A program made the translations under genes and the position numbers. From NCBI GenBank assembly GCA_002498125.1, contig DAGG01000013.1:18196-82195 (forward strand): a DNA stretch of 64,000 bases. Reading direction: 5' to 3'. Below are positions 11,641-58,306 of the stretch, in pieces. Under the pieces are notes generated by a model. The model searched no databases. It had not been told where the DNA came from and worked only from the letters and a program-made list of their open reading frames with translations. The stretch comes from Candidatus Woesearchaeota archaeon UBA525. Its GTDB lineage: Archaea; Nanobdellota; Nanobdellia; Woesearchaeales; UBA525. Each line of letters opens with the position of its first letter. Within the stretch, counting starts at the first letter, position 1.

Positions 11641-11690
11641 TGGACCCGGCCAGATTTGAACTGACCATTCTCACTTCGTTCGGAGCCCGG
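11641..11690 (-). pseudogene. tRNA 3'-half-like fragment (degenerate copy of tRNA-Val T-arm and acceptor 3' strand plus conserved trailer motif)
   Basis: tggacccggccagatttgaactgacc matches 20 of 26 nt of the tRNA-Val 3' end. It has no 5' half, so it is not a functional tRNA. Confidence 0.5.
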
Positions 11691-11707
11691 TTCGTATTTT
11701 ATGAGAA

Positions 11708-11779
11708 TGGACCCGCCCGGATTTGAACCGGGGACCTCTACCGTGTGAAGGTAGCGCTCTACCACTAAGCTACGGGTCC
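11708..11779 (-). tRNA. tRNA-Val (anticodon CAC), CCA not encoded
   Basis: Manual fold GGACCCG-TA-GCTT-AGTGGTA-GAGC-G-CTACC-TTCACAC-GGTAG-AGGTC-CCCGG-TTCAAAT-CCGGG-CGGGTCC-A. Confidence 0.8.
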
Positions 11780-15729: not shown

Positions 15730-15824
15730 AAAGAGTGAAGATAGAAAGAGTGAAGACGCCCCCACGGGGCAATCTCACTAGCGTTCGGAGCCCCGCGGGG
15801 ACCACGAATGCAGCGAAGCGAAAT

Positions 15825-15896
15825 ACGCCCCCACGGGGAATTGAACCCCGGTCTCAGGGTTCGGAACCCTGAAGTCTATCCGTTAGCCTATGGGGG
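15825..15896 (-). tRNA. tRNA-Arg (anticodon CCG), CCA not encoded
   Basis: Manual fold: acceptor GCCCCCA/TGGGGGC, anticodon arm CAGGG-TTCCGAA-CCCTG, T arm CGGGG-TTCAATT-CCCCG. The D stem has one mismatch, shared with the second Arg tRNA. Confidence 0.7.
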
Positions 15897-16078
15897 CAGG
15901 ATCATTGAATCCTGATACAGGGGAACTCATTCCCCTCGCGCCGGCGTAGCATTGAACTATTTATAAAACTGACTTCCTCGTGAACGCACAGATTATTTTC
16001 CCTAAGTGAAGAAAACGTGCGCATTCTTTGTCCATTCATCACCTAACATATTTAGGCATACGGAGCGTAGGATGCCAT

Positions 16079-16996: not shown

Positions 16997-17220
16997 GTCC
17001 CGTCCTATTTTTCTCCTATTTTGACGAGGTGAAAAAACTATTGGACCGTATCGATAAGGAGGTGGAGAGCTACGGCAGGGAAGTAGGCCGTGTGCTGGAC
17101 AAACTTGATGACCTCGTGGGACCGGAGCCGCGCAAGAGGACCACGAAGAGAGCGACTACCAAGAGGGCGACGAAAAGAGTGGTAAATAGACCTGTCAAGA
17201 AAAACGCCCCCGCGAGGTAA
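16993..17220 (+). CDS. small coiled-coil protein with basic tail (75 aa)
   Basis: Overlaps the previous ORF by 4 nt; C-terminal KR-rich repeats TTKRATTKRATKR. Confidence 0.3.
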   Translation: MSPVLFFSYFDEVKKLLDRIDKEVESYGREVGRVLDKLDDLVGPEPRKRTTKRATTKRATKRVVNRPVKKNAPAR

Positions 17221-17275
17221 TCTCAGTTGCCTTCGAGACCTCGCGGGGACCTTGAATGACTGAAAGGAATGAGAA

Positions 17276-17347
17276 CGCCCCCGCGAGGAATTGAACCCCG
17301 ATCTCCAGGACCGCAACCTAGTGGTCTATCCGTTAGCCTACGGGGGC
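17276..17347 (-). tRNA. tRNA-Arg (anticodon GCG), CCA not encoded
   Basis: Manual fold GCCCCCG-TA-GGCT-AACGGAT-AGAC-CA-CTAGG-TTGCGGT-CCTGG-AGAT-CGGGG-TTCAATT-CCTCG-CGGGGGC-G. TATA gcTTTTTAAAc about 35 nt upstream. Confidence 0.7.
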
Positions 17348-17389
17348 AGACGTACTCGCAAGAGATTCAGGGGTGCTTTTTAAACGTTG

Positions 17390-27475: not shown

Positions 27476-27547
27476 GCGTCTGTAGTGCAGTGGTTAACAT
27501 ACGAGCTTCCCAAGCTTGTGACCCGGGTTCGACTCCCGGCAGACGCA
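27476..27547 (+). tRNA. tRNA-Gly (anticodon CCC), CCA not encoded
   Basis: Manual fold: acceptor GCGTCTG/CAGACGC, anticodon arm CGAGC-TTCCCAA-GCTTG, T arm CCGGG-TTCGACT-CCCGG. Confidence 0.75.
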
Positions 27548-27599
27548 TAGCAGCCTCGGCGAAAAAACATATAATCTACACTATCACTCCCCACACCCA

Positions 27600-27860
27600 A
27601 TGGCCACCCACGATCTCGAGACAGTCACAATCCTCACATTCAAAGATGGAGATGAGGAGTTCTCAAGGTCCTACGATAGTCTTCTCAACCTTAAGTCGGG
27701 CGACGTGGTGAATCTCCTCATCGGCGGAGGGAATCCGCCGGTACGCGCCGGCAATTACATCGTCAGGATATCGACCATACACAACCAGATGGGAATCGAC
27801 CTTGAGGAGAAGGGACCTGACGGCCTCTACAAATACTTCGATCTCGAATACATAGGCTGA
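27600..27860 (+). CDS. hypothetical protein (86 aa)
   Basis: ORF only. Confidence 0.3.
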   Translation: MATHDLETVTILTFKDGDEEFSRSYDSLLNLKSGDVVNLLIGGGNPPVRAGNYIVRISTIHNQMGIDLEEKGPDGLYKYFDLEYIG

Positions 27861-27880
27861 CAGCTCCGGCAGACGCATCG

Positions 27881-28072
27881 ATGAAACTCTTCTTGGCACG
27901 ACACGGCGAGACCGACTGGAACCAGCAGAAGATGATCCAGGGACCGAATTCAAGCCACCTCTCAGAGAAAGGAAAGCAACAGGCGAGAGCGCTCAAAGAG
28001 CACCTCTCATCACACCCCGCGAAGATATTTAAACAATCCACGAACCGCCATACTGATGGAGCAGTGGAATGA
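27881..28072 (+). pseudogene. histidine phosphatase (PGM-family) N-terminal fragment, truncated after about 60 aa
   Basis: LARHGETDWN catalytic motif followed by a premature stop. No in-frame continuation of the fold. Confidence 0.4.
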
Positions 28073-28709
28073 GTATATCGGCGACATATGGGCAGATGTC
28101 CTGAAAGGATGCGCACTCCCGGACCGGGGTACGCTTGTAGAGATCGCTCCTGGCGGGACGGACAAGATAGGCCGCGGACTCAAGGCACTCGGATGGCAGG
28201 GAACAATCTACCTCGTAGACCCTCATCGTGAAGCGCTGGAGAAGACGCTACACGCATACAAAGCGCTCCTCCCAGCATCACGCGTCATCGGTATCGCCGC
28301 CCCATGCGACGAAGCGCCGCTTCCACCCCGCATGGACGCGCTCATCTCTAACCACCCGCTTGATGATATGATCATCGGCCACACGCTCGATGCTGACGAA
28401 TTCACTTCTTTCTTCGCAGACCACTACGCGAGCGATCCGGAAACGACGCGGTCGCTCTGGCAGAAGAAATCCGAGCAGATAGGAGCAGCAGTGGAACGCA
28501 CCGTTTCGGAATGGAGCACCCTCATGCCGAGAGCGGCAGTCACAGTCATCGCGCAGTACGAGAGCTCATTCTTCAGACAACATCAAATAGACGCACCAGA
28601 CCGCTACGCAAAAGTTGTGCTCGACAGACTACGGAACATATCCCGCACAGCACTCCCCACCTCAGCTAAGATAGCCGATCCGCAACGATGGCTCATCGCC
28701 CACCAATAA
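28056..28709 (+). CDS. putative class I SAM-dependent methyltransferase-like protein
   Basis: LVEIAPGGTDK motif-I-like and DALISNHPL motif. Weak assignment. Confidence 0.35.
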   Translation: MEQWNEYIGDIWADVLKGCALPDRGTLVEIAPGGTDKIGRGLKALGWQGTIYLVDPHREALEKTLHAYKALLPASRVIGIAAPCDEAPLPPRMDALISNHPLDDMIIGHTLDADEFTSFFADHYASDPETTRSLWQKKSEQIGAAVERTVSEWSTLMPRAAVTVIAQYESSFFRQHQIDAPDRYAKVVLDRLRNISRTALPTSAKIADPQRWLIAHQ

Positions 28710-52548: not shown

Positions 52549-53243
52549 TGCAGCGCCTCGCCGCCATCGTCGAACTCCTCAAGGAGTCGAACAAGCGTAT
52601 AGAGGATTCTAGGGAGGCAGAAGGCACGGGGTTCCTCTCGTTCGATCCAGAGCGGATCGCGCAGACAGTGCTTGAGTTGAGCGCAATCAGTCGGCCTCCC
52701 AGGAGCGTCCTCGACTTGGGCTGCGGAAACGGCCAATTCGCATTGCTCGCCGCGGCGGCAGGTTACCCGTCGTATGGCATCGAGATAGAGCCTCGCCTCA
52801 TCGATGAAGCAAGGCATCTCCACGAGATATGTGTTGAGCGCAATCTAATAGACAAGAATATCCCGTGCAGGTTCGTCGCCGGCGACATGATCCCATTCGA
52901 ATACCGCGAGCAGTACAGGAAGTTCCGGACCGAGCACAACGAGAACGAGGCCAGCATGCCAATATCCGAAGATACCTCCGACCCCTACAAGGAGTTAGGC
53001 ACAAGCATTCAGACAGCGGACATCATCTACTGCTGGTCGTGGCCAGGCCAATCGCGATTCCTCTACAATCTCCTCGAGGATATCGCGAAACCTGACTGCG
53101 TATTCATACTTCCCTCATATGAGCGTTATACGCAAGGAGAGCACATGAACGCTGCTTTCAAGGAAAGGAACCGCCTTGTGCTTACGCGTCTGGCAGAGGT
53201 CCAGGGCCAGACGAGCATCTTCATCGGTCGCCGCGCTCAGTAG
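52545..53243 (+). CDS. class I SAM-dependent methyltransferase
   Basis: VLDLGCGNGQFAL motif I and post-I acidic residue. Confidence 0.6.
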   Translation: MMQRLAAIVELLKESNKRIEDSREAEGTGFLSFDPERIAQTVLELSAISRPPRSVLDLGCGNGQFALLAAAAGYPSYGIEIEPRLIDEARHLHEICVERNLIDKNIPCRFVAGDMIPFEYREQYRKFRTEHNENEASMPISEDTSDPYKELGTSIQTADIIYCWSWPGQSRFLYNLLEDIAKPDCVFILPSYERYTQGEHMNAAFKERNRLVLTRLAEVQGQTSIFIGRRAQ

Positions 53244-53809
53244 CGAACTGTTACATCTCTCGGCGTTTTGCCGATGAGGTCCCACGTATAGATAACGGCA
53301 TCGAAGGGCTCGTATGAAGTGATTCGTACCCAGTCTGCAGGTACCCAGTCCCCTGCAGCGATTACCTGCCGATCTCCCGCGGCACGCTTGATGACTGCGG
53401 CAATGTTATTCTCCTCCCCGTTCCATGCTGTCGAGCAACTGTTCAGAAGTATGGTCGCATCAGGCGCAAGCTGGTTAAAAAAGCTGCGCAACTCCTCCAC
53501 GTCACTACGGTCAATGTAGCGCTTCTCGTCGCAATCGACTCCACAAGGATCATCAGGGCCGCCGAGCGCAATTGATGTCGGCGTGCCATGGCCTCCGATG
53601 ACGAGCAACTTCGCTCCCGCCACAGGCGTACGGTACAGCTCATCCTCTGTCCCTACCTCTGCCATATGCGTCAGGTAGTGCGACTCAATCTGACTGATCA
53701 GCTTTGATTGCGCTGCCCGCGAGAACGATCCAGAAGTATCATACACGGGCATCGTCATGACTGCTTTCGGCTGTGAGAGCGCTGCTGCGAGGATGAGTTC
53801 GAGAAGCAT
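53237..53809 (-). CDS. secreted small protein with His...Cys dyad arrangement (clan-CD caspase-like signature hhhhGGHG ... hhhhNSCS)
   Basis: Signal peptide; LLVIGGHGTP and ILLNSCSTAW motifs. Confidence 0.4.
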   Translation of the reverse strand: MLLELILAAALSQPKAVMTMPVYDTSGSFSRAAQSKLISQIESHYLTHMAEVGTEDELYRTPVAGAKLLVIGGHGTPTSIALGGPDDPCGVDCDEKRYIDRSDVEELRSFFNQLAPDATILLNSCSTAWNGEENNIAAVIKRAAGDRQVIAAGDWVPADWVRITSYEPFDAVIYTWDLIGKTPRDVTVRY

Positions 53810-53812
53810 GCG

Positions 53813-54430
53813 TTACTCCATGAATGTGTAGTCGATTTCCGGCATCGTTCCAGAAGGATACGATTTCCCTACGATGTTTTCGAGACGCACGGTCTTGCCA
53901 GGCATATGACCTCCGTCGATATCTACCTTGCTTGTTATCCGCAGGCGGAATGGGTATCGTGAGATATAATGCTCATTGACGTCGTTGAAGGACGAGGTAG
54001 ATGCGATGACCGTGCGTGTGCCTGCGATGCGCTTGAACTCAGCAGCGAAAGAACCAGGCCCTTTCGCCGTACTGCCGGACCGCAGGTAGATGGTCGCATC
54101 CTCAGGCATGTGCGAGATGGCTTCGCGGAGCGCCTCCATGTCGCCGAGATCGAGCTTACGCGCCTCTCCCTCGCCGGCGCTGAGCGTGATGCCATCGGGC
54201 GTGCCATGTCCTGATATCACGAGCGTATGAGGGCCGGTCCGCATCATCGCGTACACCTTATCCTCAGTATCGACCTCGTACATCCGCACACGGTGCGTCG
54301 ATGCGAGGTAGGTGTCTATCGCCTGTTTTGTCCCGGCGTTACGCGTGAACATCCCTGTATCATAGTTAGGATGGAGGATGACAGCCTGCGGCATAGCCGC
54401 GATAATCAGTGCCGCCACCCATTGGAGCAT
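53813..54430 (-). CDS. secreted paralogue of 53237..53809 with Cys replaced by Gly (likely inactive)
   Basis: Signal peptide; LVISGHGTP retained but IYLRSGSTA has Gly where the paralogue has Cys. Confidence 0.4.
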   Translation of the reverse strand: MLQWVAALIIAAMPQAVILHPNYDTGMFTRNAGTKQAIDTYLASTHRVRMYEVDTEDKVYAMMRTGPHTLVISGHGTPDGITLSAGEGEARKLDLGDMEALREAISHMPEDATIYLRSGSTAKGPGSFAAEFKRIAGTRTVIASTSSFNDVNEHYISRYPFRLRITSKVDIDGGHMPGKTVRLENIVGKSYPSGTMPEIDYTFME

Positions 54431-54953: not shown

Positions 54954-55544
54954 ATGGAACACCAAGTCAAGACATTCGATCTCAAAGGCCTTAATGGTCT
55001 CAGCGACCAGCAGATGGAGCCGCATCGCGACGCGCTCTACGTCGGCTACGTCAAGAAACTCAACGAGATAGAGAAAGCACAGCGCGAGGCCGACCTCACG
55101 AAAGCTAATGGCACATACGCAGAGTTTCGCGAACTGAAGGTAGAGGAGCCGTTCGCGACGAATGCAGTATTCCTCCATGAAGGGTTCTTCGCGAACCTCG
55201 AACACGGCAAGGGTGGCGAGCCGCAGGGAGCGCTGGCCGAGGCGATAGCGAAGGAGTGGGGGAGCTTCGATAAGTGGAAGGCAGAGTTCATCGCCTGCGG
55301 AAAGGCTGCGCGCGGCTGGGCAGTGCTCGCGTACAGCTTCAATGACAACCGCCTGCACAACTACGTGATGGAACGCCACGATATCGGCGGGGTATGGGGC
55401 TGCATCCCGGTGCTCATCCTCGATGTGTATGAGCACGCGTACATGATCGACTTCGGCGTGGACCGCGCAGCATACATCAATACGTTCTTCGAGAACCTGA
55501 ACTGGGACGTCGCAACCCAACGGTACGAGAAGACGCTGAAGTGA
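54954..55544 (+). CDS. sodA: superoxide dismutase (Fe/Mn family)
   Basis: Motifs characteristic of Fe/Mn SOD (HxxK...DVYEHAY); 196 aa. Confidence 0.9.
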   Translation: MEHQVKTFDLKGLNGLSDQQMEPHRDALYVGYVKKLNEIEKAQREADLTKANGTYAEFRELKVEEPFATNAVFLHEGFFANLEHGKGGEPQGALAEAIAKEWGSFDKWKAEFIACGKAARGWAVLAYSFNDNRLHNYVMERHDIGGVWGCIPVLILDVYEHAYMIDFGVDRAAYINTFFENLNWDVATQRYEKTLK

Positions 55545-55644: not shown

Positions 55645-55950
55645 TTGAAGCTTATGGGTTACGAATGGCTGGATCCTAGACAGGATTTCGACGGTGTAGA
55701 TCTCAGTGATGCCTTAGACGGTAATCTTGCCGATATCATCAAACGAGAGTACCGTAGGATGGTGCCGGGCATCGTGCGTTCTACTCTGCGCGGAGCGACT
55801 GCTGGCGCAATCGCTGGTTACGTGGCGCAGCGAGCCTTCAATCTCCCTCCAGACACAGTGTTTGCTGGCAGCATCGTGGGAATAACTGTCGATGTTGTCC
55901 AGTACAATATCAGGTACCAATACAGGGTGGCGAAGAAGTTCTTCGAATAA
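55645..55950 (+). CDS. hypothetical protein (101 aa, TTG start)
   Basis: ORF only. Confidence 0.3.
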   Translation: MKLMGYEWLDPRQDFDGVDLSDALDGNLADIIKREYRRMVPGIVRSTLRGATAGAIAGYVAQRAFNLPPDTVFAGSIVGITVDVVQYNIRYQYRVAKKFFE

Positions 55951-55993
55951 TCTACTGCATGATTGGTCCGTAGCCGATGAGGCGGAAGAACTG

Positions 55994-56374
55994 TCAATGG
56001 CGTGAATAGATTTCTTTCGCTTTCGGCGTCAGGAAGATGATGTTCGGCGCGTTGTGCTGGGCCTGCGGCAGGTACCATTCATACTCCATCTGATCCATCC
56101 GCCGCGAACGCAGCCTATCCAGCAGAGGGACGCATTTCCAGAATGTCCTCGACAGATACTTTGAATCCTGCTCAGCGGCATTCTTCACAAACCCGCTCAT
56201 CCATTCGTAAACAGGATCCTTGAACGCCGGATCATCACTACCCCAGGACTCAAGACGCACTTGCCGATCGGACATCTTCCGGAGCAGTTCGCTGTTCCAT
56301 TCGACGAGCATGCTTCTCTGCGATTTAGGAAGCATTTTTGGGAATTTCTCCTCAATCTCTTGAAGCGTGTGCAT
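55994..56374 (-). CDS. hypothetical protein (127 aa) flanked by duplicated aIF2-gamma 3' end
   Basis: Start at MHTLQEIEEKF; the longer track ORF overlaps aIF2-gamma. Confidence 0.35.
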   Translation of the reverse strand: MHTLQEIEEKFPKMLPKSQRSMLVEWNSELLRKMSDRQVRLESWGSDDPAFKDPVYEWMSGFVKNAAEQDSKYLSRTFWKCVPLLDRLRSRRMDQMEYEWYLPQAQHNAPNIIFLTPKAKEIYSRH

Positions 56375-56409
56375 AGAAGTCGGGAACTCGGGACTGGTTA
56401 AAAAGATTC

Positions 56410-57732
56410 TCACTGCTTGATTAGTCCGTAGCCAATGAGGCGGAAGCGGGTGCCAACACGGCGTGAGATTGTGACCCGCGCGCCGACATCTGCGCAGACA
56501 GGCTTCTTCAGCGTGCACTTGATCACGTTCTTTGAGATGTCGCGCACAATGCCGACAGTCGCTGAGCTGTTCACGTTGAGCATGAGCAGTTCGTTCGGCA
56601 CAATCGGGTTGACCTTGAGGTCCTCGATGCTGCCGACCACACGCTCCATGAGCGTAACCTCGAGATTGAGGCTGTTCCACACCGGCGGAAGCTTACCGGG
56701 GAGGCCGACGACGTTGCCGGTGAGCGAGTCTGATTTCACGACGCCAGGGTCAAGGTCTGTCATGATGCCGATGCTGCCACCGGGACCGACAGATTCCACC
56801 AGAACGCCGCCAGTCACTGCTGAGACGACTGTCGCCATGATTGGCTTCGCCTTGAGCTGGTTCGCTTCCTCGTAGACACGGCCAGGACGGAGCTCCACCT
56901 TGTCACCAATCTTGAATCGTCCCTGCTTGAGCGAGCCACCGAGCACTCCGCCTTTGATCTTCTCTGGCTTGGTGCCGGGCTTGTTCATGTCGAAGCTGCG
57001 GGCGACGAACATGATCGGGTCTGCTTCAGCGTCACGCTGAGGCGTCGGGATGAACTCCTGGATTGCCTGCAGCAGAACGTCGATATTGACTCCGCGCTGG
57101 GCGCTGATTGGAATGATAGGGGCATCCTCGAACTTTGTGCCCTTGAGGAACTCCTTGATCTGCTGGTGGTTACGGAGCGCGCGCTCTTGACTGACGAGGT
57201 CGATCTTATTTTGCACGATGATGACCTTATCGATTCCACTGATCTCTAGCGCCATGAGGTGCTCGCGTGTCTGTGGTTGCGGGCACAGCTCATTCGCTGC
57301 GACCAAGAGGAGCGCACCATCGATGATGGTCGCGCCTGCAAGCATGGTAGCCATGAGACTCTCGTGTCCTGGCGCATCGACGAGACTGATTTTCCGGATC
57401 TCAGTGGTCTCACCAGCTTCCGCGTCCACCTCTTTGGTGGTGAGCGTGCCGTCCTTTGCCTGGCGAACGGTGAAATCGGCATAGCCGAGCCTAATCGTGA
57501 TGCCGCGCTTGACCTCTTCAGAATGCGTATCTGTCCACTTGCTGCTCAAGCGCTCAGTGAGCGTAGTCTTGCCGTGGTCGACGTGGCCGACCAGGCCGAT
57601 GTTGATCTCTGGCTGCGCGACGCCGTGCGCGGCCTTGGCCTTGGATTTCTTCTCCTTGTGCTCAGGCTTGTGCTCTGGCTTCTCCACTGCAGTCTGTTCA
57701 GGTTCTGCAGTCTTCTGAGCCTTTTTCGCCAT
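56410..57732 (-). CDS. eif2g: translation initiation factor 2 subunit gamma (aIF2-gamma) with Lys-rich N-terminal extension
   Basis: INIGLVGHVDHGKTTL and WTDTHSEEVKRGITI motifs diagnostic of aIF2-gamma; 440 aa. Confidence 0.8.
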   Translation of the reverse strand: MAKKAQKTAEPEQTAVEKPEHKPEHKEKKSKAKAAHGVAQPEINIGLVGHVDHGKTTLTERLSSKWTDTHSEEVKRGITIRLGYADFTVRQAKDGTLTTKEVDAEAGETTEIRKISLVDAPGHESLMATMLAGATIIDGALLLVAANELCPQPQTREHLMALEISGIDKVIIVQNKIDLVSQERALRNHQQIKEFLKGTKFEDAPIIPISAQRGVNIDVLLQAIQEFIPTPQRDAEADPIMFVARSFDMNKPGTKPEKIKGGVLGGSLKQGRFKIGDKVELRPGRVYEEANQLKAKPIMATVVSAVTGGVLVESVGPGGSIGIMTDLDPGVVKSDSLTGNVVGLPGKLPPVWNSLNLEVTLMERVVGSIEDLKVNPIVPNELLMLNVNSSATVGIVRDISKNVIKCTLKKPVCADVGARVTISRRVGTRFRLIGYGLIKQ

Positions 57733-57757
57733 CTAGAGGAGAATCAGGAGGTTCTTT

Positions 57758-58306
57758 TTAAAGGTTTGTAGATTCTCTCCTGTATTTCGCGACGTCAATA
57801 ATGCCACGATTGTTCAGGATGTCTAAGAGTGTGGGTTCATTCACCAGACAGCTCTGTTCCCTGAACCTCTTCTTCACCGCCTCAAGCTCAAAATCCCTCT
57901 GTGTTTCGAGAGAGCCCATCTTCCTATCGTACTCCTGCCTTGCGCTATGGAAGTAGGAAAGATCGCCTGCGATATCGCGCCTCGGCACAGTAAGGAGGTC
58001 TAAGACGCTATTGTAGTGCCGGTCAGTTACGATCACTCCTTTATCATAATCGTAGAAGGTGATGAAGCGCGATTTGCGCATGAACGTGACGTCCTCACCC
58101 ACCCCGATAGGGTCTGGGCAGATTACTGCCCGACGTTCCTGTCTCTTCCTGAAGAGACCGTACTGCCGCAACACCACTGGAGCCAATACCAGACCATCTT
58201 CCGATCTGGCCTCGTAGTTCACATAGTTCGTGGCAAGGATATGGTTCTTGTGATCTGCGACCACCAGTCCTGCAATGTCCAGGATGTATAGGCGTAACTC
58301 TTCCAT
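57758..58306 (-). CDS. hypothetical protein (182 aa)
   Basis: Start MEELRLYILD supported by TTATTTAA about 27 nt upstream on the minus strand. Confidence 0.35.
   Translation of the reverse strand: MEELRLYILDIAGLVVADHKNHILATNYVNYEARSEDGLVLAPVVLRQYGLFRKRQERRAVICPDPIGVGEDVTFMRKSRFITFYDYDKGVIVTDRHYNSVLDLLTVPRRDIAGDLSYFHSARQEYDRKMGSLETQRDFELEAVKKRFREQSCLVNEPTLLDILNNRGIIDVAKYRRESTNL

Follow-up and report, generated by a model that had tools for sequence, protein, structure and literature searches.

How does the 3' end of an essential gene come to stand twice on a chromosome, with a small gene of no recognisable kin lodged between the two copies? The question is raised by the aIF2-gamma gene of Candidatus Woesearchaeota archaeon UBA525, which lies in a 64,000-nt stretch of contig DAGG01000013.1 (assembly GCA_002498125.1, positions 18,196 to 82,195 of the forward strand), the whole of which is referred to below as the window. 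An insert of about 0.42 kb, holding a single orphan open reading frame (ORF), separates the working end of this gene from a second, displaced copy of that end. The structure is best explained by an integrative element, or recombination of the attachment-site (att) type, at the 3' end of aIF2-gamma, a reading to which we assign a rough probability of 0.5.

A preliminary description of the locus had claimed that the 3' end of aIF2-gamma is duplicated nearby, and the duplication is borne out. A direct repeat on the minus strand, identical at 32 of 35 positions (91%) and spaced 458 nt from start to start, comprises the last 11 codons of the gene and the first base (T) of its stop codon. The match of 31 positions in 34 nt reported earlier was reproduced (31/34), and it forms the only pair in the window at three or fewer mismatches to the 34-mer; a scan of the 64 kb found no further copy. 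Dinucleotide-preserving shuffles yielded two 34-mer matches in 0 of 100 trials, and BLASTN-short recovers the pair with an E-value of 5e-8. The features concerned are the following.

56410..57732, minus strand: aIF2-gamma, 440 aa, intact, with Pfam matches to GTP_EFTU (1.6e-36) and eIF2_C (3.8e-28)
56412..56446, minus strand: repeat copy B, the functional aIF2-gamma end (last 11 codons and first stop base)
55954..55988, minus strand: repeat copy A, the displaced pseudo-end (FRLIGYGPIMQ, then TAG at 55952-55954), within no ORF

The identity of the gene rests on the presence of both defining domains and on the synteny of its orthologues; its product ends in ...RFRLIGYGLIKQ followed by the stop, and its promoter box, TTAAAAAG, ends 21 nt before the ATG. 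Copy A reads QFFRLIGYGPIMQ and is untranslated. The two C-termini described earlier, FRLIGYGLIKQ-stop for the real end and FRLIGYGPIMQ-stop for the pseudo-end, were both recovered. The pseudo-end is in frame with the stop of the small ORF, 42 nt away, which has a chance of 1 in 3 and is no evidence on its own.

The repeat is shorter than first described. An extension to about 55-58 nt by way of a shared ggcgtgaRat did not hold up: when the 40 nt towards the gene interior were aligned locally, P was 0.06 relative to shuffled sequence and 0.10 relative to 40-mers drawn at random from the window. The flanks beyond the stop codons of the two copies are unrelated (P = 0.63). The repeat is therefore a sharp-edged block of 35 nt.

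Differences between the copies are unevenly distributed. In the pseudo-end there are two non-conservative changes, Leu to Pro and Lys to Met, at positions where relatives show I/L and K/Q, whereas copy B has a single synonymous change, ATT, where the pseudo-end and most relatives have ATC. Such asymmetry would be expected if one copy were under selection and the other decaying. Both copies share a lineage-specific ending in Q-stop, which indicates that the source of the duplicated sequence was the gene of this lineage itself or that of a very close donor. At third codon positions aIF2-gamma shares only 31-54% identity with the nearest relatives, against 91% between the repeat copies, so the event is much younger than those splits.

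At the level of nucleotides the three mismatches are T/C, T/C and A/T, and these bear on a further explanation, a diversity-generating retroelement (DGR) whose variable repeat would be the gene 3' end and whose template repeat would lie downstream. DGRs are common in DPANN archaea and are known to place a near-copy of a gene 3' end nearby, but the mismatches break the rule that only template adenines vary, the repeat is only 35 nt long where at least about 100 nt would be expected, a housekeeping GTPase is the target, and no reverse transcriptase occurs among the annotated window genes (Pfam genes at about 11.4-43.7 kb and 46-64 kb and long ORFs at 0.5-14 kb), so that this explanation retains almost no probability.

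The DNA between the copies amounts to 423 nt and consists of a short spacer and one ORF.

56375..56409, minus strand: spacer of 35 nt after the aIF2-gamma stop, with a TATA-like TTTTTAA at 56398-56404
55994..56374, minus strand: orphan ORF of 126 aa, ending 5 nt before copy A

The ORF had been given as 127 aa, which should read 126 aa. The TTTTTAA ends 23 nt before its ATG, a geometry resembling that of the box of aIF2-gamma itself; it is a putative promoter, and its placement fits a leaderless archaeal mRNA. No homologue other than the sequence itself was found by a word-index search of 5.8 billion proteins or by HMMER against 1.84 billion representatives, and there was no match in Pfam, PHROGs, PADLOC or PDB sequences. 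One candidate, a 732-aa tandem-repeat protein (P0002) that matches the same 27 residues many times, was judged spurious. A single-sequence AlphaFold model is all-helical but unreliable (pLDDT 44). The annotated frame has the best codon score of the six (0.09), with a GC content of 0.65 at third positions (GC3) against 0.52 overall, and to judge from these figures it looks like a coding sequence. It falls below the core genes in both respects (GC 0.57-0.58, codon scores 0.29-0.80); however, neighbouring accessory genes share its low GC and weak codon adaptation, and the compositional signal is thus weak. Under neutral drift to the divergence seen between the repeat copies, the ORF would have stayed open with a chance of about 19%, which is weak evidence for selection on it. 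The ORF is presumably expressed.

The interior of the insert also speaks to a local tandem duplication of about 458 bp across the gene end, by slippage or unequal crossing-over, with later divergence or replacement of the interior. Such an origin would suit two copies lying close together in the same orientation, and it has a parallel in a tRNA-Ser locus of another Woesearchaeota stretch (L072), where the repetition also takes in the sequence that follows the 3' end. Smith-Waterman comparison of the insert with its two flanks, however, gave scores of 18 and 20, equal to the shuffle means (18.6 and 19.2), and the interior cannot randomise while the repeat stays 91% identical, so that a simple tandem duplication is not the source. 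As similarity fails to continue through the repeated unit, tandem segmental duplication is largely refuted by these scores and must be considered very improbable.

Comparison with related genomes indicates which of the two ends occupies the old position. The 80 closest aIF2-gamma loci among GTDB species representatives all belong to Woesearchaeota or Nanoarchaeota (DPANN) bins, and the closest protein among 5.8 billion sequences is 82-83% identical. The C-terminal RFRLIGYG is near-invariant across the phylum, and it is on conserved sequence of this type that integrative elements rely. Synteny is conserved: DNA ligase, a helix-turn-helix protein and FtsZ lie upstream, and an S27ae-S24e-Spt4-Rpb7 cluster lies downstream on the opposite strand, at a distance from aIF2-gamma that ranges from 0.7 to 4.8 kb. 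Two genes on the downstream side serve as landmarks.

55645..55950, plus strand: convergent ORF of 101 aa, whose stop lies 1 nt from that of the pseudo-end and which marks the ancestral downstream border
54954..55544, plus strand: Fe/Mn superoxide dismutase (SOD; Pfam Sod_Fe_C), a syntenic anchor in the same place in L084, L085 and the P0009 contig

In those three relatives (79-81% identity) the order is aIF2-gamma, a small convergent ORF, then SOD; the stops of aIF2-gamma and the convergent ORF are 5 nt apart in L085, and the two genes overlap in L084. In the window it is the pseudo-end that adjoins the convergent ORF, with the real aIF2-gamma end 458 nt further on. The gene end of relatives abuts the convergent ORF as the pseudo-end does here, which places the pseudo-end at the expected ancestral position of the gene end.

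When the aIF2-gamma loci of relatives were compared, as the preliminary description had proposed, both the ORF and the repeat proved to be missing from the closest of them. The 126-aa ORF was found in none of the 80 GTDB loci, of 22 metagenome loci, or of L084 and L085, and the tail copy is missing in the closest relatives L002, L084, L085, L109 and L106 (78-82% aa identity). About 100 related loci thus lack the ORF, yet the protein of the nearest shares only 82% identity, and each genome has its own downstream neighbour.

That the arrangement is a chance match or an assembly chimera is extremely improbable: only the short length of the repeat speaks for an artefact, and against it stand the absence of any such pair from the 100 shuffles and an identical sequence that was assembled independently, once by JGI and once by Logan from a different run. 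The locus is present on six contigs drawn from several assemblies. Of these, one JGI contig and two Logan contigs were compared with the window and match it at 100%, so that the structure is not an assembly artefact. The source samples are JGI 3300034945, SRR5036858 and SRR1026849.

A sharp repeat, an unrelated interior, an intact essential gene and an old end beside its old neighbour together fit recombination between DNAs sharing 35 nt. Direct repeats stand at both junctions of the insert and one of them completes aIF2-gamma, the arrangement by which an integrated element is recognised. Under the integration reading, about 0.42 kb of lineage-specific foreign DNA, bringing one ORF and its own promoter-like box, would have recombined into the last 35 nt of aIF2-gamma. 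The partners would have shared the 35-nt stretch in the fashion of an attachment site, leaving one copy at each junction: the copy joined to the gene body would keep aIF2-gamma intact, and the other would be the displaced end, decaying beside its old neighbour. The outcome would be the attL and attR of site-specific integration or, formally, the product of a Campbell-type single crossover on short homology. The likeliest agent would be an integrative element for which the conserved 3' end of aIF2-gamma served as the attachment site on the chromosome; a site-specific recombinase would have acted, and the insert would presumably once have been larger than it is today. What is left would then be either an element cut down by trimming in this streamlined DPANN genome or a miniature cassette mobilised in trans. 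An empty site would read as the aIF2-gamma body, one 35-nt core and TAGATTATTCGAAG..., and a closed circle of 458 bp would read as the end of the small ORF, ...CATTGACAGTT, the core and TGAGAATCTTTTTAACC....

The earlier proposal of an insertion of roughly 400 bp that regenerated the gene end thus finds support in the relatives that carry neither ORF nor repeat, in the pseudo-end at the ancestral border and in an insert unlike its flanks. That a single insertion event was responsible is likely but unproven, as ORF-less tail copies, one of them conserved, occur in other Woesearchaeota.

The comparison with a target-site duplication, also made earlier, does not survive in the transposon sense. 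In that sense a staggered cut would have been filled in around an insertion sequence element, a casposon or a miniature derivative, giving a true target-site duplication on either side of a short insert. Casposases generate duplications of 14-15 nt and transposases usually of 2-15 nt, lengths that suit the 14-15-nt repeats at the two tRNA-Arg genes of the window but not the 35 nt found here. The insert ends carry no terminal inverted repeats, no inverted repeat linking the two ends having been found in the sequence, the annotated window genes include no transposase or Cas1, and the insert was single-copy in all protein searches (5.8 and 1.84 billion). A transposon-type origin is accordingly most unlikely, even though tRNA genes and the gene for EF-2 are known casposon targets at their 3' ends (PMC6563490). 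Both the casposon and the DGR readings fail on defining features.

Integration at the 3' end of a conserved gene is a known kind of event; what is unusual in the window is the target, the tiny content of one orphan gene, and the recurrence. Among integrated elements of Thaumarchaeota, 14 of 68 lie in 3'-distal regions of protein genes, including that for EF-2, and restore the reading frame; thaumarchaeal casposons favour EF-2 above other targets (PMC6563490). These elements (Krupovic et al. 2019, PMC6563490) resemble the window in their use of the 3' end of a conserved translation GTPase, in short junction repeats, in a frame restored with a new stop, and in the targeting of tRNA genes in the same genomes; they differ in spanning kilobases and encoding an integrase or Cas1, whereas here 0.42 kb holds one orphan ORF and no recombinase in a DPANN host. 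Fragments of tRNA genes commonly form direct repeats around integrated elements in archaea (PMC9897764), and in such cases the partial copy is non-functional, as it is here (van der Gulik et al. 2023, PMC9897764; She et al. via PMC6563490). Those cases bracket 9-23 kb, however, while the brackets of the window measure 42-57 nt (tRNA-Val and both tRNA-Arg), 315 nt (tRNA-Gly) and 423 nt (aIF2-gamma), and some of the short ones, unlike the documented cases, form conserved-looking hairpins.

In bacteria, phage 21 and the element e14 integrate into the 3' end of Escherichia coli icd, supplying an alternative end while the displaced end comes to lie at the far junction. The housekeeping gene stays functional, and the ends differ largely synonymously, as they do in an aIF2-gamma tail copy described below (L075), but these, unlike the window insert, are complete prophages that encode an integrase and duplicate a segment of about 165 bp. 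Integron cassettes offer a working analogy: they too are single-ORF units, often orphan, placed at a defined recombination site. They carry attC, mostly lack a promoter of their own and depend on IntI and attI; no such features are present here, where the repeats are the target gene's own 3' end. No report of aIF2-gamma as an integration target was found in literature searches.

The preliminary description had likened the gene-end duplication to duplicated tRNA 3' ends in the same DNA, a likeness that proved real. An Rfam scan of the window returned four tRNAs only, and all four genes have a same-strand downstream copy of their own 3' end, one of which brackets an orphan ORF.

tRNA-Val: copy matching 19/21, 46 nt downstream
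tRNA-Arg(CCG): copy matching 14/14, 55 nt downstream
tRNA-Arg(GCG): copy matching 14/14 (15 nt exact with the next base), 57 nt downstream
tRNA-Gly: copy of 13 nt exact (15/16 with one indel), 315 nt downstream
27533..27878, plus strand: tRNA-Gly(CCC) cassette (locus 27476-27883), made up of the tRNA 3' end at 27533-27548, a 51-nt spacer, an ORF, CAG and the copy at 27864-27878

The ORF of the tRNA-Gly cassette encodes 86 aa (27600-27860), with no homologue in 5.8 billion proteins and no Pfam match. An ATATAAT in its spacer ends 24 nt before the ATG, and TGA-CAG precedes the repeat, as TGA-CAG(TT) does at aIF2-gamma. The two cassettes of the window are thus alike: each is a single orphan ORF equipped with a promoter-like element, a TATA-like box lying 23-24 nt before the ATG, and a TGA-CAG end.

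A His_Phos_1 gene starts 3 nt after the tRNA-Gly copy. Within 27881-28709 it was called as a 63-aa piece overlapping a 217-aa ORF without a Pfam match, and it may be a frameshifted or split gene.

At the two tRNA-Arg loci (15756-15898 and 17204-17348, minus strand) the copy forms the 3' strand of a 13-bp hairpin, with z-scores of -2.6 and -4.75. The 5' strand of each hairpin (GTCCCCGCGGGG and GTCCCCGCGAGG) varies along with the sequence of its own tRNA, the 21-nt loops are related to each other (CTCCGAACGCTAGTGAGATTG and TCTCGAAGGCAACTGAGATTA), and TTTTT follows directly after the hairpin of tRNA-Arg(GCG). The hairpin could be a terminator, a mimic of a tRNA minihelix or an att remnant. Downstream of tRNA-Val (11641-11779, minus strand) a 42-nt spacer is followed by a second T-arm and acceptor 3' strand (gtcagttcaaatctggccgggtcca), the T-stem of which carries compensating changes; the spacer has GGGCTCCGAACG in common with the tRNA-Arg(CCG) trailer and is bounded by TTCTCA...TGAGAA.

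Elsewhere in Woesearchaeota a downstream copy accompanies two of five tRNAs, the tRNA-Ser of L072 and the tRNA-Pro of L041, and the other three have none. The tRNA-Ser copy (L072, 171-299) lies 110 nt downstream of the 3' end and matches it exactly over 18-19 nt, with the flank motif TAGATTTRAACGT repeated too; that of tRNA-Pro (L041, 2686-2848) matches at 15/16 about 134 nt after the 3' end. It is a rather doubtful proposition, though one that would join the tRNA and aIF2-gamma cases, that a process in Woesearchaeota acts repeatedly on these 3' ends, duplicating the end and installing small units between the copies, so as to provide a cassette route for orphan genes without a recognisable integrase, with some of the echoes, namely the tRNA-Arg hairpins and the tail copies of a GYGILK-stop clade described below, kept for function.

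Copies of the aIF2-gamma tail are not confined to the window. A search for a downstream copy of the last 24 nt at 706 ORF ends in 82 Woesearchaeota stretches returned seven matches of at least 18/24, four of which belong to aIF2-gamma (the window, L075, L055 and L078), with a weaker case in L081. In this survey aIF2-gamma is the only protein gene with convincing echoes; their presence in at least three lineages is what one would expect if it were a recurrent attachment target. The distribution of these copies shows that the end of aIF2-gamma has been duplicated repeatedly in the phylum, which supports a site-specific process. Matches of 18/24 in L043 and L033 lie in A-rich sequence and are no better than the best control scores. 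The one other strong match, in L073, was rejected as an internal repeat of a repeat-domain protein.

In L075 (6196-6316; 63% aa identity) the last nine codons of aIF2-gamma, IGFGTIQE-stop, recur together with the stop and 4 nt at a distance of 90 nt downstream. The two copies show four differences, all synonymous, a pattern expected if one of the copies was brought in by an element and formerly functioned as the gene end. The 68-nt insert between them is a patchwork of a repeated non-coding unit (1954-1978, 2132-2156 and about 2203-2232). At 1860-2420 the same stretch also carries an array of repeated non-coding units, each about 90-180 nt long and marked by a TATA-like CATATAAAG and a palindrome, GCTGAGCT..AGCTCAGT; part of the stretch is masked as N. 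Rfam gave no match to this array, which may consist of small RNA genes or of element remnants.

In a clade whose aIF2-gamma ends in GYGILK-stop, a second CGYGILK-stop lies 24-27 nt past the stop (L055 4573-4640, L078 6297-6365, L081 5029-5100; weaker in L049 and L071). The 50 nt downstream of the gene are 72-83% identical within this clade, against 41-52% at third codon positions, where synonymous change is saturated; this implies constraint, and the stretch looks constrained and not decaying. RNAalifold pairs the last codons in a hairpin with sequence just past the stop, although the four sequences show little covariation. The two tails in the window, by comparison, have unremarkable folds (z about 0).

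Such cases would also fit a different order of events, in which the tail copy is an older or independent element of the 3' flank and the orphan ORF landed or arose beside it later, making two events of one. Echoes with only 24-68 nt between the copies (L055, L078, L081 and L075, and more weakly L049 and L071) would then represent the state without a gene, and the constraint on the GYGILK-stop flank, like the tRNA-Arg trailers in which the 3'-end copy is one strand of a stable hairpin, would point to a function of the copy itself. On the other side, the five closest relatives of the window locus carry no echo, so that an echo is not ancestral here; two genes, at the aIF2-gamma and tRNA-Gly sites, would each have to land precisely in a gap of a few tens of nucleotides; the tails of the window have no notable RNA structure; and the non-conservative changes of the pseudo-end look like decay. 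An origin in two steps with the echo first is therefore considered unlikely, though not negligible.

Several observations also weigh against integration at aIF2-gamma. Neither the insert nor the annotated window genes yielded an integrase, transposase or Cas1, no intact element was seen beside aIF2-gamma in the roughly 100 related loci, and a Pfam survey of 124 downstream ORFs in relatives revealed no integrase among the 25 families listed. A close strain with an empty site did not turn up either: all compared contigs of the locus are identical, an exact 22-mer search of JGI metagenomes for an empty site or a close strain gave no match, and a degenerate scan of the same data yielded 57 loci, 24 of them with aIF2-gamma, none above 80% identity and none with an echo. 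No IMG/VR virus carries a mimic of the aIF2-gamma tail, three degenerate scans having returned 0 and then 3 chance hits, one of which lay in an acyl-carrier-protein gene. The 126-aa ORF occurs nowhere else among the 5.8 or 1.84 billion proteins and so gives no sign of mobility, and it fills the insert to within 5 nt of the repeat, making a tidy one-gene unit unlike a random deletion remnant. Lastly, the tail echo of the GYGILK-stop clade is conserved well above synonymous sites, which suggests that not every echo is a scar and that some have a function as RNA or DNA elements.

The surroundings of the locus add some observations in their own right. The slot between aIF2-gamma and SOD holds an unrelated convergent ORF in each genome: 101 aa in the window, 85 aa in L085 (3711-3968), 234 aa in L084 (6392-7096) and an 88-aa PQ-loop protein in the P0009 contig. 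On this comparison the slot is a hot spot of gene turnover at the aIF2-gamma 3' end. The sequence TTAAAAAGATTCTC, on the plus strand at 56398-56411, is an inverted copy (12/14) of the aIF2-gamma upstream box at 57748-57761; if active in the plus direction, it would drive RNA antisense to the aIF2-gamma 3' end. In the variable region between SOD and a methyltransferase, at 53241-54430 on the minus strand, lie two adjacent ORFs of 205 and 190 aa that belong to no Pfam family and are paralogues of each other (40% over 143 aa).

Tail echoes recur in several lineages and in one of these are conserved, which hints at more than scars, although this is unproven. For annotators, the locus is a warning that short gene pseudo-ends are not noise, and gene-end echoes could serve as markers for integration hot spots and element remnants in DPANN metagenome bins. 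If the integration reading is true, the C-terminal coding stretch of aIF2-gamma (RFRLIGYG...) would be added to tRNA genes and EF-2 as a place where archaeal mobile DNA integrates, here in Woesearchaeota (DPANN), a phylum whose mobile elements are almost unknown. The locus would then also be a concrete case of an orphan gene entering a streamlined genome with an essential gene left unharmed.

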